A DNA stretch of 61,867 nt, the filler included, from Chthonomonadaceae bacterium (lineage in GTDB: Bacteria > Armatimonadota > Chthonomonadetes > Chthonomonadales > Chthonomonadaceae), in NCBI GenBank assembly GCA_035650735.1. It is 4 parts of 4 records of this genome, joined end to end, with 100 filler letters (N's around TTAATTAATTAA, not from the genome) between each part and the next. Parts side by side here need not be neighbours in the genome. Positions count along the whole stretch, not along the records: positions 39,023 to 55,988 come from DASRGZ010000027.1; 3 more parts are not named here. The stretch is one strand, 5' to 3'. Within the stretch, counting starts at the first letter, position 1, and each line of letters starts with the position of its first letter. The notes beneath the pieces are model-generated. The model did no database searches. It had not been told where the DNA came from and was given only the letters and a program-made list of their open reading frames with translations. This document shows, piece by piece, positions 5,324 to 56,088 of the stretch. A program made the translations under genes and the position numbers.

Positions 5324-8300
5324 CTAGGCCACCGTGGCGTTGGCTTGCTGCTCGGCTTCAAGCTCGGCCTGCGCGCGGCGATACTCCAGCGAGACCACCT
5401 TGACGAACTGCGGCAGCGTCCTGTCCCAGTTTTGCAGGAGGGTCGCCGCCCGGTCGCTGCTGGTGTATTCCAGATGCTTCTCGATCAGGCCGCGCAGCAG
5501 CTCCACGTCGCGCGGCTCGCAGACCGATTCCAGAAGGGTCAGGCCGTGATTGCGGTTACAGCGCCGCTCGAAGTCGCCGTCGGGGTCCCAGACGTAGGCC
5601 ACGCCGCCGCTCATGCCCGCCGCGAAGTTGCGCCCGGTTTTGCCGAGGACGACCACCACGCCGCCCGTCATGTACTCGCAGCCGTGATCGCCCGTGCCCT
5701 CCACCACCGCCGTCGCGCCGGAGTTGCGCACCGCAAACCGCTCGCCCACCACGCCGCGCAGATAGCACTCGCCGCTCGTTGCGCCGTAGAGGAGCGTGTT
5801 GCCCGCCACGATGTTCTCCGCCGGGTCGAACGGCGACTCGCGCGGCGGGTAGACGATGATGCGCCCGCCGGAAAGGCCCTTGCCCAGATAGTCGTTGGCG
5901 TCGCCTTCCAGCGTAATCGTGATGCCTTTCGCCAGGAACGCGCCCAGGCTCTGGCCCGCCGATCCCCGGAAGTTGAGACGGATGGTATCGTCCGGCAGGC
6001 CCTGCGCGCCGTACTGCATGGCGATGCGCCCGGAGAGCATCGTGCCGACCGTGCGGTTGCGGTTGTAGATGGGCAGCTCCACCGCCACCGGCGTGCCATG
6101 CTCCAGCGCGTCCTTTGCCACCTCGATCAGATGGTAGTCCAGCGCGTTCTCCAGGCCATGATCCTGTTTGGTCACGCAGCGGATCGGCACGTCCTCCGGC
6201 ACATCGGGTTTAGTCAAGAGTGGCGTCAGGTCGAGGCCGCGCGCCTTCCAGTGGTTGATCGCGTCCTCCACGTCCAGCCTATCCACGCGCCCGACCATCT
6301 CATCCACCGTGCGGAAGCCGAGCTCCGCCATGATCTCGCGCAGCTCCTGCGCCACGAAGAAGAAGTAGTTGATCACGTTCTCCGGCTGGCCCGCGAAGCG
6401 CGCGCGCAGCACAGGGTCCTGCGTGGCGATGCCGACCGGGCAGGTGTTCAGATGGCAGACGCGCATCATGATGCAGCCCATCGAAACGAGCGGCGCGCTG
6501 GAGAAGCCGAACTCCTCCGCGCCCAGAAGCGCCGCAATCGCCACGTCCCGCCCCGTTTTAAGCTGCCCGTCGGTCTGGACGCGGATGCGCCCGCGCAGGT
6601 TGTTCTTGACGAGAACCTGCTGCGTCTCGGCCAATCCTAACTCCCAGGGCGTGCCCGCGTACTTGATGCTGGAGAGCGGCGACGCGCCCGTGCCGCCGTC
6701 ATGCCCGCTGATGAGCACGTGGTCCGCGTGCGCCTTCGAGACGCCCGCCGCGACCGTGCCCACGCCGATCTCGGCCACCAGCTTGACCGAGATGCGCGCG
6801 TTCGGGTTGACGTTCTTCAGGTCGAAGATAAGCTGCGCCAGGTCCTCGATAGAGTAGATGTCGTGGTGCGGCGGCGGCGAGATAAGCGTGACGCCCGGCG
6901 TCGTGTGGCGCACCTTCGCGATGTACCGATCTACCTTATGGCCGGGCAGCTCGCCGCCCTCGCCGGGCTTCGCGCCCTGCGCCATCTTGATCTGTAGCTC
7001 GTCCGCGTTGACCAGGTAGTGCGTCGTCACGCCGAAGCGCGCGGAGGCCACCTGCTTGATCGCGCTGCGGCGGCTGTCGCCGTTCGGGTCGGGGATGTAG
7101 CGCACCGGGTCTTCCCCGCCCTCGCCGGTGTTGCTTTTGCCGCCCAGGCGGTTCATGGCGATGGCGAGCGTCTCGTGCGCCTCCCGGCTGATGGAGCCGA
7201 GCGACATGGCCCCGGTCGCGAACCGCTTGACGATCTCTCTGGCCGGCTCCACCTCCTCAATCGGGATCGGATTGCCCGGCTTGAACTTGAGCAGTCCGCG
7301 CAGCGTCGCCAGGTGCTCGCTATGGTTATTGGCAAGCTGCGAGAACTCCTTAAACGTCTTGTAGCTGTTCTGCCGGACGGCGTGCTGGAGCTTGGCGACC
7401 GTGTCCGGGTTGTACTGATGGTACTCGCCGCCGCGCCGCCACTGGTACTGCCCGCCCGGATCGAGGTCCAAGTTCTCCGGGACCTCCCGCTTGGGGAACG
7501 CGAACGCGTGCCGGGCCAGCGCCTCTTTCTGGAGGACATCCAGCCCGACGCCCTCGATCTGCGAGGGCGTGCCGGTGAAGTACTTGTCCACCAGCGCCTT
7601 GCTCAGCCCGACGGCCTCGAATATTTGCGCGCCGCGATAGCTTTGCAGCGTCGAGATACCCATTTTGGCGAAGGTTTTGAGCAGGCCCTTGCTGATGGCC
7701 TTGATATAGTTCTTCTCCGCCTTCTCCAGCGACAGGTCTTCCGGCAAAATGCCCTGCAGCTTCATGTCCGCCAGCGTCTCGAACGCCAGGTAGGGGTTGA
7801 CCGCGCTCGCGCCGTAGCCGACGAGCAGCGCAAAGTGCATCACCTCGCGCGCCTCCCCCGACTCGACGATCAGGCCGACCTGCGTGCGCGTGCCCTCCCG
7901 CACCAGATGATGATGGACGGCGGAGGTCGCCAGCAGGCTCGGAATCGGCGCGGTGTTCTCGTCAATGCCCCGGTCGGAGAGGATGATAAAGCTGTAGCCG
8001 TCCGCCACCGCCTGCGACGCCGCCTGGCACAGATCGTTGAGGGCGCGCTCCAGGGTGTCCTCCCCGTTGTCCAGGAAGAACCACATCGGCAGCGTCTTGG
8101 CGCGGAAATCGCCCGCGCGCACGTGCCGCAGCTTCTCCAGGTCGAAGTTGGTCAGAACGGGCGATTCCAGCTTCAACTGATGGCAGTGCTTGGGCGTCTC
8201 GTCGAGCAGGTTGCCGTCGCGCCCGATGTAGTCGTCCAGCGACATGACCAGCTCCTCGCGGATCGGGTCAATCGGCGGGTTGGTGACCTGGGCGAACAGC

Positions 8301-29418: not shown

Positions 29419-29518
29419 NNNNNNNNNNNNNNNNNNNNNNNNNNNNNNNNNNNNNNNNNNNNTTAATTAATTAANNNNNNNNNNNNNNNNNNNNNNNNNN
29501 NNNNNNNNNNNNNNNNNN
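29419..29518. other. Artificial contig spacer
   Basis: N44-TTAATTAATTAA-N44 (stops in all frames). Confidence 0.97.
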
Positions 29519-38922: not shown

Positions 38923-39022
38923 NNNNNNNNNNNNNNNNNNNNNNNNNNNNNNNNNNNNNNNNNNNNTTAATTAATTAANNNNNNNNNNNNNNNNNNNNNN
39001 NNNNNNNNNNNNNNNNNNNNNN
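38923..39022. other. Artificial contig spacer
   Basis: N44-TTAATTAATTAA-N44. Confidence 0.97.
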
Positions 39023-42405: not shown

Positions 42406-42434
42406 ATTATACGCTGTAGAAGGCGCTAAGTCAA
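42406..42434 (-). promoter_or_regulatory. Sigma70 promoter for the leader-leuS transcript
   Basis: Minus strand TTGACT-17 nt-TATAAT. Confidence 0.75.
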
Positions 42435-42499
42435 CGATCTGTTTTCTAAGGACGGCGCTGCCGTATAATTTGCAGCGTAAGGATCATCATTCGCTAAAG

Positions 42500-42770
42500 C
42501 CCTCATCCCCTGCCCCCCTCTCCCGGCGCTGCGGGAGAGGGGAGAGCAGAAGCCGGGTCCCCCCTTTCGCTGCCGCGTGAGCGGCGAATCAGGGTCGCTA
42601 GGTGGAGGGCTGTGGCAAGGCGGAGGCAAGGGCCGTAACCTTGCCGACCCTGGCAGTCCATTGTAGGCCCGACCCTTGCAGTGGGGTGGGCACGGTGATA
42701 GGCGTGCGCTGGATATAGGTCTTGCAGTCCATTGCAGGCCCGACCCTTGCAGTGGGGGCCGGGGGGTTAG
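42500..42770. repeat. REP-like palindromes and modular repeat cluster
   Basis: CCCTCATCCCC...CCCCTCTCCC...GGGAGAGGGG plus duplicated GCAGTCCATTG(T/C)AGGCCCGACCCTTGCAGTGGGG; inverted relatives at 46521-46745. Confidence 0.7.
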
Positions 42771-42904
42771 GTGCAATACGAGTTTAGCAGGGGAGGGGCT
42801 GTCTTACGGGGAATATCTCTGTGCGGTTGGCGAAAGACCAGAGGCAGGAGCTTCAGGAAGGCTCGCGAATCAATAATTCCTTCATGGGAGTGAGCAAATC
42901 CACA

Positions 42905-44048: not shown

Positions 44049-45067
44049 ATGTCACACGGATTTCGTTCCCTGATTCGGGTTGGAAGTGCTCTGGCCCTGC
44101 TGGCGCTCTGCCTGGGAGCGGCGGGACTGGCTGCGCTTCCCGTCCGCGCCGATACGGCCATCACGGCGGGCGCAGACAAGAAACTCAAGATATGGAATAT
44201 CGCCGACGGCACGGTCACGAAGACCATTGAGGCCCATGATGGCGCAGCCAATGCGGCCGTCCTCAGCCCGGACGGCAAGCTGCTGGCGACCGGCGGAGCG
44301 GATAAGAAGATCAAGCTCTGGAACCCGACCGACGGCACGCTGATCCAGACCCTGGACGCCCATGATGGCGCTGTGACCAGCCTGTTCTTCCTGCCGGACA
44401 ACTCCAAGCTCCTCTCCGGCGGGGCCGATAAAAAAGTCAAGGTCTGGAAGGTGGAGAACGGCAAGCTTCAGGAGAAGCCGCTGGTAGCCGTCGAGGCGCA
44501 CGAGGGATCGGTTATCGGCCTCTTCGGCACAGCCGACATGATTATTTCCGGCGGCGCGGATGGAATGATGACCGTCTGGGATGCGGCGGGCAACCCGACC
44601 ATATCGTTTCCGACCGAGCATGAGGGCGGCCTGACCAGCATGACACCGCATCCGAAGGAGCGTATGCTCTACACGGGCGGCAAGGACGGCAAGATCAAGT
44701 ACTGGAGCCAGGCGGCGCAGGGGACGTTCGAGGGCGCGCAGGGCAGCGCGGTGACGGCGCTGGCCGTTCTGCCCGACGGCAAGAACTCGTCTCCGGCGGG
44801 GCCGACGGCAAGGTCAAAATCTGGGACACCGACACGCACAAGCTGCTGACAACCATTGACGATGCGCACAAGGGCGCCGTCACCGTAATCTCCTTTTCCC
44901 CGGATGGCCGCATGATCTTCACGGGCGGGGCCGATGGCAAAGGGAAAGCCTGGAGCCCGGACGGCAAATTAATCCATTCGGTGGACGCGCACGACGGCGC
45001 GGTCACCGTCATCCTCTACCGTGCCGACAAGCCTGCCGGGGAGGAGAAGAAAGCGGAGAGCAAATAG
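44049..45067 (+). CDS. Secreted WD40-repeat protein with a frameshift near 44784
   Basis: Signal peptide; repeated AHDGAV...SPDGK.L.TGGADK.IK.W units; repeats continue in another frame (LVSGGADGKVKIWD...) to TAG 45065-45067. Confidence 0.85.
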
Positions 45068-45765: not shown

Positions 45766-45935
45766 AGTCCGAGGGTAAAGAAAAAACGCGCTGACGGCGT
45801 AAATTTGCCCATAAATTTGCAGATATTGGCAGGAATCGCGGAGAGCGGAAAGGGAAATAGGCAAGTGTTTCCACTGGAAGAAGCCGCAGGGCTTTCGCCC
45901 GCGCGGAGCGTCACCCAAAAAGGAGAGAAAGAGTC

Positions 45936-46367
45936 ATGAAGAAACTCGTATCTCTGATTGCGGCTGGTCTGCTGCTGGCGAACGTGACGACGCTGGCGCA
46001 GGACGCGGAGAAGAAGCCGAAAGTTTACACGCTCGTCGTTGATGGCGTCGTTTGAGCGGGATGTGCCGGTCAGGTGATCGGCTCAATGAAGTCCGTCGAG
46101 GGCGTCACCGTCATCACGGAGCCGAAGCCAGGCGGCAAGAACGCGCAGAGCCTGGCTATTGTGGAACTCAGCGGCAAGGCAAGCCTGGGCAAGCTGCTGA
46201 CGGCGCTGGAAGCCGCCAAGACGCCGCACGCCGAAAAAGCGCCGCCTGGCGCAGAAGCCGTCATTCCGGGCAGACTCAAGCCCACCGCCACGCCCGAAGC
46301 CATTATGAGCGCCCTGGATAAAGCCGGCTTGACGGCCTCGGAGAAGGAGGAGGCGGAAGTCAAGTAA
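45936..46367 (+). CDS. Secreted HMA-like protein with in-frame UGA (candidate selenoprotein, UxxC)
   Basis: AGGAG + ATG 45936, signal peptide, YTLVVDGVV-UGA(46053)-AG-C-AGQV, same frame continues to TAA 46367; SECIS-like hairpin 46065-46082. Confidence 0.72.
46065..46082 (+). promoter_or_regulatory. Candidate bacterial SECIS element
   Basis: Stem GCCGGTC/GATCGGC, apical loop AGGT starting 16 nt after the UGA. Confidence 0.6.
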
Positions 46368-46404: not shown

Positions 46405-46438
46405 ATCGGGCGGCTCTCATCTCGGAGCCGCCCGATTT
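46405..46438 (+). terminator. Hairpin / probable terminator
   Basis: Perfect 12-bp stem ATCGGGCGGCTC/GAGCCGCCCGAT with a short T run. Confidence 0.55.
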
Positions 46439-46445
46439 GCGTTCC

Positions 46446-46745
46446 GGGAGCATCATAGCCCTCACCCCCGGCCCCTACTGCAAGAGCCATCTTTCTACTC
46501 GACCAGGTTGGCGATCACCAGGGAGCATCATAGCCCTCACCCCGGCCCCTACTGCAAGGGTCGGCCCTGCAATGGACTGCCAGGGTCGCGCCTACAATGG
46601 TTGGGCCCCTGCTCGGGTCGGCAAGGTGCTGCAAGGAACGGGCCTGCCATGGTTGGGCCTTCTGCCTTGCGAGGCCCTTGCCTCCGCCTAGCCACACCTG
46701 GCCACAGCCCTCCGCCTGGCGAGCCACGCTGCGGGAGAGGGGAGC
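46446..46745. repeat. REP-like / modular repeat cluster
   Basis: Direct repeat GGGAGCATCATAGCCCTCACCCC(C)GGCCCCTACTGCAAG at 46446 and 46521; inverted homology to 42595-42770. Confidence 0.72.
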
Positions 46746-55988: not shown

Positions 55989-56088
55989 NNNNNNNNNNNN
56001 NNNNNNNNNNNNNNNNNNNNNNNNNNNNNNNNTTAATTAATTAANNNNNNNNNNNNNNNNNNNNNNNNNNNNNNNNNNNNNNNNNNNN
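55989..56088. other. Artificial contig spacer
   Basis: N44-TTAATTAATTAA-N44. Confidence 0.97.

Follow-up and report, generated by a model that had tools for sequence, protein, structure and literature searches.

The window analysed here is a 61,867-nucleotide stretch of DNA from a Chthonomonadaceae bacterium (Armatimonadota), made up of contigs joined by N runs at 29419-29518, 38923-39022 and 55989-56088. On its contig C27 (positions 6914-7342 of that contig) lies a + strand gene at 45936-46367 that encodes 143 amino acids if its in-frame TGA is read as selenocysteine (Sec), and whose homologues align over both halves. An SD-like AAGGAG (45920-45925, +) sits 10 nt 5' of the ATG at 45936, codon 40 is TGA (46053-46055, +) in the context YTLVVDGVV-U-AG-C, and the frame closes at a TAA at 46365-46367. 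The features that the initial annotation had read from the sequence are all present, as is the split it had described in the ORF track: the ORF list of the window holds the downstream piece only, and protein collections store a 39-aa upstream piece and a 93-aa downstream piece as separate entries. The split database gene most likely encodes one 143-residue protein with Sec in a loop of the copper/mercury-chaperone type.

Residues 1-21 (45936-45998, +) form a predicted Sec-pathway signal peptide with a basic n-region, a hydrophobic h-region (hydropathy up to 2.7) and T-L-A before the likely cut, and full-length homologues have similar N-termini; judged by composition, the protein is thus predicted to be exported. 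Residues 28-112 (46017-46271, +) form a heavy-metal-associated (HMA) domain of ferredoxin-like fold, called from an AlphaFold2 model and its structural matches, in which the inferred Sec40 is the first position and Cys43 (46062-46064, +) the second position of a UxxC motif. A perfect 12-bp inverted repeat (46405-46436, +) begins 38 nt 3' of the stop and may be a terminator or a repeat-element hairpin; a consensus scan of the + strand called no intrinsic terminator, this repeat included, and no sigma-70-like promoter was called. The flanks within the window hold an uncharacterised 155-aa ORF and two convergent M16 peptidases. The gene is not fused to a P-type ATPase, the next genes are on the other strand, and tblastn found no paralogue in the same genome. 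Below, G denotes genomes (G000 being the gene's own), L loci and P protein-collection records.

The gene's own genome encodes the machinery for Sec insertion, with selA at 535.7 bits (cut-off 267.9), selB at 368.8 bits (cut-off 242.25), selD at 374.5 bits (cut-off 125) and a tRNA-Sec (selC) with anticodon TCA at 71.7 bits (cut-off 47); selD itself has one in-frame TGA with a downstream hairpin. TGA is also the commonest stop in this genome and terminates 612 of 1712 long coding-like ORFs, so that reassignment to Trp (code 4 or 25) was excluded and TGA taken as an ordinary stop. In the genomes of TGA-bearing homologues that were tested (G053, G057, G058, G274 and the two-domain G056; G411 lay outside the test), we found selA and selB in all five and tRNA-Sec in four, the fifth genome being 77% complete. 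Against a phylum background of selA in 215 of 401 genomes, this is consistent with Sec but not strong support alone.

Conservation of the TGA carries more of the argument. At the Sec column, the one-domain family comprises eight distinct sequences with TGA (this gene included), six with Cys and one with Trp. The seven other TGA sequences (G053, G057, G058, G274, G411, L021 and L023) are 36-55% identical where measured and, like the Cys forms (L022, P0003, P0004, P0006, P0009 and P0055; P0041, a near-copy of P0004, was left out of the count), bear out the expectation that homologues would have Cys or Sec at this position. Because TGA is kept at the same column in seven other distinct sequences and Cys occupies it in six, the finding is above chance. 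The TGA sequences come from two classes, all eight have a Cys codon at the second UxxC position, and synonymous differences from five homologues are many in both halves of the gene.

These sequences came from several searches. Among 60 related genomes, a one-domain TGA homologue was found in three (G053, G057 and G058) and a two-domain TGA relative in one (G056); three weak matches were dropped, L014 and L016 being ordinary copper-ATPase-type HMA domains and L015 failing to realign. Searching 401 phylum genomes added G274, and 68 class genomes added G411. Metagenomes contributed L021 and L023 with TGA and L022 with TGT. A locus search with a six-row alignment returned three genome loci and six metagenome loci, one of them this DNA, and two spurious short matches (L024 and L025) were discarded. 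The other five Cys forms and a Trp-bearing record (P0044) came from protein collections, where a word-index search gave two matches only and a profile search added only two-domain Cys relatives. Among 31 library representatives, 10 were full-length proteins with CxxC and Thr-Pro-His, 1 was the upstream piece of this gene, 5 were other, and 15 were fragments starting 3' of the Sec column, a systematic annotation error; some of the 15 may reflect wrong starts, and P0030 is the only one tied to a TGA (in G053).

The conserved column also bears on whether the TGA is a true stop (in a pseudogene or between two small ORFs), a sequencing error, or Trp under another code. The storage of the two pieces as separate database proteins fits such an account, and so does P0044, a JGI record with Trp at the Sec column. 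However, the other seven of the eight members of the P0044 cluster are 61-90-aa fragments, and the Trp is for that reason probably an artefact, a gene caller's code-4 reading of a TGA. Contigs of four public runs from three studies show no letters other than those of TGA, and no TGC, TGT or TGG; three of these runs may be the source of this DNA, and the fourth has a depth of 2.7. The public runs carrying this DNA are labelled soil and mine metagenomes, and most may be the source sample. Given TGA at one column in eight distinct sequences from two classes, with synonymous changes still accruing in both halves, the run contigs, the stop usage of the genome and its TCA-anticodon tRNA-Sec, we rejected pseudogene, sequencing error and Trp decoding, which together are very unlikely. 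The gene is almost certainly a real selenoprotein gene, its TGA decoded as Sec. Separately, one further homologue record, P0022, appears to lack the Sec/Cys column altogether (G-T-L-G-G-C), perhaps because a TGA was skipped or the source is frameshifted.

We then considered the hairpin downstream of the TGA, a 7-bp stem (46065-46071 paired with 46076-46082, +) closed by an AGGT loop (46072-46075) with G at its second position and separated from the TGA by a 16-nt spacer, as the initial annotation had described it. The accessible portion of PMC1088965 describes bacterial SECIS elements as stem-loops immediately downstream of the UGA whose small apical loop includes a G, and this element has that form. 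Over the first 60 nt from the UGA, folding gave z = -1.66, with 18 of 200 shuffles equally good; a 21-nt window gave z = -3.69, a value biased because that window was chosen around the hairpin. The SECIS-like hairpin filter was passed by 30 of the 144 coding-flanked TGAs of the genome, and the hairpin alone is weak evidence for Sec. Under a synonymous-codon null the hairpin of this gene was reached in 3 of 1000 cases, and p < 0.05 was obtained in four of the seven one-domain Sec sequences tested (0.003 for this gene) and also in the two-domain G056; the hairpin was not unusual by this null in G058 (0.14), G053 (0.27) or G274 (0.50).

The hairpin occupies the same position across homologues. 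In the alignment, 78.6% of 56 cells pair and both sides have changed at three of the seven pairs, a modest covariation signal whose score 13 of 500 shuffles also reach. A compensated change in this gene turned one C-G pair into U-A by way of GGT, a rare codon that makes up 6.6% of Gly codons. The Leu codon in the loop is TTG in six of the seven Leu-bearing Sec homologues, which are kin and not independent, versus 6.7% TTG in this genome. The Cys homologue L022 retains the same hairpin, which is therefore partly dictated by the protein sequence; its presence there also fits a remnant SECIS after reversion from Sec to Cys, a pattern described in the available part of PMC1794560.

A genome-wide scan reduced 144,508 six-frame TGAs to 144 with coding-like flanks and then to the 30 with a SECIS-like hairpin, and the 143-aa gene ranked within the top six by coding score. 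When ten other TGA candidates were compared with NCBIfam, a peroxiredoxin and two AhpD-like proteins exceeded their cut-offs, four redoxin- or deiodinase-like proteins fell below, and three were unmatched; the organism is selenoprotein-rich on account of these further candidates. Loops of the other candidates' hairpins (GTT, GGT, AGGTC and AGTTC) resemble the AGGT of the 143-aa gene.

Several of these frames deserve separate mention. A second hidden exported selenoprotein candidate in the same genome (G000:C177:6720-7328, +; L077, L080) carries the motif C-P-Y-G-x-x-G-U-W and a signal peptide; in its predicted structure (pLDDT 82.7) an OB-fold domain comes after an HMA domain, with structural matches to Ccc2a (Z 8.4) and PriB/SSB (Z 7.7); its TGA is kept in 3 others of 68 genomes, and it has no NCBIfam match. 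A TlpA/ResA-like frame with UxxC (G000:C79:5545-6163, -; L074, L079) lies between an ArsR regulator and a merA/merTP-like cluster and meets a second TGA 34 codons later, after which it looks non-coding, so that a frameshift or a true stop is possible. Two other candidate selenoproteins have strong hairpins and no NCBIfam match, namely a signal-peptide protein with C-P-V-U (G000:C143:303-890, -; L068) and a membrane protein with U-P-W-C (G000:C152:17045-17698, +; L069).

We modelled the protein with AlphaFold2 from a 29-row alignment (mean pLDDT 87). The model has strands at residues 29-36, 57-61, 71-78 and 105-111 and helices at 41-52, 84-92 and 120-129, giving the HMA order beta-alpha-beta-beta-alpha-beta followed by an extra helix (120-129); U40 is placed directly before helix 41-52 and C43 in the first turn of that helix. 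Structural matches were led by CsoZ (Z 9.0, rmsd 1.8, 69 aligned), Ccc2a (8.9), RAN1 (8.8), ZntA-N (8.6) and PacS-N (8.5), and nine of the top ten were HMA domains of metal chaperones or transporters, the tenth being a plant HMA domain; Z values of 8-9 stand only slightly above those of common folds. Foldseek against the PDB gave no match at E <= 0.001. The family profile searched against the PDB matched CopA N-domains best (E 1.5e-9), together with MerP (E 1.7e-7), and querying a protein atlas with a naturally Cys-bearing homologue produced leads to HMA clusters that were all below 0.9 (best 0.83). The HMA assignment made from the sequence is thus borne out by fold and family profile, though the single sequence falls under the Pfam HMA cut-off (PF00403, 11.4 bits and E 0.46 versus 24.8 bits). 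Pfam HMA was matched at E <= 0.1 by 11 of the 29 family rows (best 2e-5), and the 143-aa protein reached no Pfam or NCBIfam cut-off.

Across 22 full-length rows, G37, U/C40, C43, T96 and H98 are invariant and P97 occurs in at least 90%. None of the 22 has the canonical Met at position 38, two residues before the first Cys, that completes the G-M-x-C-x-x-C motif seen in the PDB alignments of the family profile. The Thr96-Pro97-His98 signature (46221-46229, +), identified from the 22-row alignment and the model, lies in a lengthened alpha2-beta4 loop between helix 84-92 and strand 105-111. In the HMA fold the beta1-alpha1, beta2-beta3 and alpha2-beta4 loops are at one end, and both insertions, in the beta2-beta3 loop and in the Thr-Pro-His loop, would therefore flank the UxxC. 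On this topology, His98 would take the place of the missing Met, either as a third ligand or as a gate. In the chaperone Atx1, His61 may serve as a Cu(I) ligand. A figure legend in PMC3763678, part of which was accessible, places Atx1 His61 in the hydrogen-bond network of a Zn-bridged dimer, and the accessible part of PMC11672702 held nothing relevant on a loop His ligand.

Comparison with known systems sets the family apart from each of them. HMA metallochaperones (CopZ, CsoZ 6ff1, Atx1/HAH1 1fe0, Ccc2a 1fvq and ZntA-N 1mwz) share the predicted fold (Z 8.2-9.0, rmsd 1.8-2.4 over 66-75 residues) and have the xxC pair where helix 1 begins, whereas the 143-aa protein has Sec for the first Cys, no Met at -2, a signal peptide, an extra C-terminal helix, longer beta2-beta3 and alpha2-beta4 loops and an invariant Thr-x-His. 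MerP (TIGR02052; 1afi, 1osd) shares a signal peptide, as judged by composition, and a single HMA domain, and is the best NCBIfam match (E 0.007); however, the 143-aa protein scores 16.9 bits against the 92.55 required and carries Sec, and none of the ORFs flanking the examined loci is a mer gene, the merA/merTP cluster of this genome being on another contig. With NF041115 (UxxU metal-binding) there is weak similarity over beta1-UxxC-helix1 (E 0.053), but the score is 13.7 bits versus 95 required, and the second position is Cys, not Sec, in all eight TGA sequences. NF045683 (MerT/CopZ fusion-like) did not match the 143-aa protein at E <= 1, its best score in the scan of full-length Sec homologues was 24.5 bits (cut-off 375), and the 143-aa protein has no MerT membrane part.

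The UxxC of the Sec-containing P1B ATPases of family TIGR01525 lies in their HMA domain. That family, 'Cation-transporting ATPase E1-E2', is listed as a predicted selenoprotein family with UxxC and a role in heavy-metal transport (PMC13188914, Table 1); its members are large membrane ATPases, whereas the protein described here is small, stands alone with a signal peptide and ends at 143 aa. Three HMA matches with one in-frame TGA in other genomes (G209:C32:18735-18977, G185:C19:18309-18536 and G131:C2:127533-127760), in frames of about 810-835 aa lying 3-6 kb from selA on the same contig, are probably such known Sec-containing P1B ATPases.

Sec in HMA loops is already known, then, from the P1B-ATPase, MerT/CopZ and UxxU proteins. 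Table 1 of PMC13188914, which covers 119 prokaryotic selenoprotein families, lists Sec in the P1B-type ATPase (UxxC), MerT-like, UxxU metal-binding and CopZ-like 2Fe-2S proteins, and no stand-alone exported HMA protein is among the 119; the families of Haft and Tolstoy 2025 (mSystems) were compared through this table and NCBIfam only. The accessible portions of PMC9312934, PMC1976440, PMC12013277 and PMC13326102 contain no stand-alone exported HMA selenoprotein, and none was named in the partial texts returned by a literature search that lay mostly outside subscription journals. The gene represents an uncatalogued family of the HMA metallochaperone type (MerP/CopZ), outside MerP, CopZ and the named HMA selenoprotein families, and adds one such family to the bacterial selenoproteome.

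The closest relatives found have two HMA domains. A group of exported proteins (P0024, P0025, P0027-29, P0032, P0033 and P0035-38; one labelled Pirellulales) has a signal peptide and a first HMA domain with CxxC and Thr-Pro-His, with Cys only in those seen and a Cys-less second HMA domain. By alignment, the one-domain family seems to retain one helix of that second domain. In a midpoint-rooted tree of 35 first domains (G411, P0055 and P0044 left out), the one-domain family formed a clade with support 99/96 (7 Sec and 5 Cys rows), and its nearest relatives were two-domain Cys proteins with the same Thr-Pro-His (grouping support 96/91). Within the clade, Sec occupies the two deepest rows, and the Cys rows are nested in at least three places; this arrangement suggests an ancestral Sec, subject to weak inner supports and the midpoint root. 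In other Armatimonadota families, proteins with a signal peptide and two HMA domains carry UxxC in the first (G056, L043, L044, L056 and L059), and Cys counterparts of these exist (L045, L047, L048 and L053); the G056 protein is below every NCBIfam cut-off.

No neighbour was common to the one-domain loci examined, and the metal connection by context comes from two places. Directly upstream of the orthologue in G057 is a second signal-peptide HMA-like gene with C-x-x-TGA, and the two-domain relative in G056 (L013:1476-2057), which has the same UxxC and Thr-Pro-His, neighbours an ICMT-like gene, a heavy-metal-binding-domain protein and a MerR-family regulator; the G057 tandem gene and the G056 cluster point to metals. 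The upstream G057 gene (L018:4285-4875, +) reads C-P-T-U (CxxU) and has a downstream hairpin, which makes the pair tandem exported HMA selenoprotein genes.

Taken together, these observations support a soft-metal-binding role outside the cytoplasm as the main job of the 143-aa protein, to which we assign a probability of about 0.6. As is established for bacterial selenoproteins, SelB would bind the hairpin and bring Sec-tRNA to the UGA; the signal peptide is predicted to be cleaved after residue 21 and the product exported; and the mature protein would adopt a single HMA fold whose first helix begins at the UxxC. The Sec40-x-x-Cys43 loop would then probably bind a soft metal, for example Cu(I) or Hg(II), possibly joined by His98, and the protein would act as a periplasmic metal buffer or carrier. 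A selenolate is ionised at lower pH than a thiolate and binds soft metals more tightly, properties that would suit such a buffer or carrier in the oxidising periplasm. The model and the family profile both point to HMA metal domains; against this role stand the lack of shared neighbours, the absent canonical Met and scores far below cut-off for the Pfam HMA, MerP and CopZ models.

The same UxxC might instead be a redox site: carried on an HMA scaffold, a selenenylsulfide/selenolthiol couple would reduce, isomerise or protect thiols in the periplasm, and His98 would act as acid/base. The accessible text of PMC13188914 (section 7) regards most uncharacterised selenoproteins as probably redox, and the family-matched TGA candidates of this genome are largely redoxins (the peroxiredoxin and AhpD-like proteins above cut-off; TlpA/ResA-like, thioredoxin-like and deiodinase-like proteins below). 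An oxidised MerP structure (1osd) is among the fold matches, the canonical Met is missing from all 22 rows, and the gene has no metal-gene neighbourhood. However, the fold is that of HMA and not thioredoxin, there is no conserved Pro-containing thioredoxin-type motif, none of the loci examined has an adjacent gene for a redox partner, and the G056 relative sits in a heavy-metal cluster. A redox function is in our view clearly the less favoured of the two and merits serious thought, given the missing canonical Met and the lack of a linked transporter.

Distribution and a single neighbourhood could suggest something more specialised than general detoxification: the exported protein might carry or store selenium, or serve one particular periplasmic metalloenzyme as a Sec-tuned sensor or assembly factor. 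The gene's distribution is patchy, in that 41 other genomes of its own family yielded no copy and the one-domain form occurs in 4 of 24 sister-family genomes; the two HMA Sec genes of G057 come after cysteine-synthase-like and ThiS/ThiF/rhodanese genes. This sulfur-carrier neighbourhood, however, was seen at one locus only among those examined, and full-length Cys forms are common, which speaks against a task specific to selenium. We consider such a specialised function improbable, and retain metal binding as the preferred reading.

On that preferred reading, a broader picture can be sketched, though we hold it as speculative and less likely than not. The gene may be one branch of a largely unannotated group of exported HMA-fold selenoproteins in Armatimonadota, with a new Se/S/N site (Sec40, Cys43 and the loop His98) undescribed in any metallochaperone, in which an ancestral Sec was repeatedly reverted to Cys. 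At least three architectures (one HMA domain with the His loop; two HMA domains; HMA with an OB fold) would then make up a selenium-based periplasmic metal-handling system. The available part of a 2026 review states that the roles of such Sec residues in metal-binding sites need further study. The family bears on the question of why selenium replaces sulfur in a metal-binding rather than a catalytic site, which can be tested directly on its natural pairs of small, soluble Sec and Cys proteins that share 63-64% identity (G058 and L022; G411 and P0055).

The window holds some further features. Intergenic repeat units occupy 46444-46660, 3' of the gene, with spacings of 75 nt and 52 nt, and a similar stretch lies near 42426-42776; a 30-39-nt piece of the repeat recurs on at least six other contigs, as in a REP-like dispersed repeat. 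What we take to be a fragment of an IS3-like transposase extends into the gap at 38923. At 44049-44849, a signal-peptide WD40 protein ends at 266 aa with a tail out of character for it, and may be frameshifted near its 3' end.
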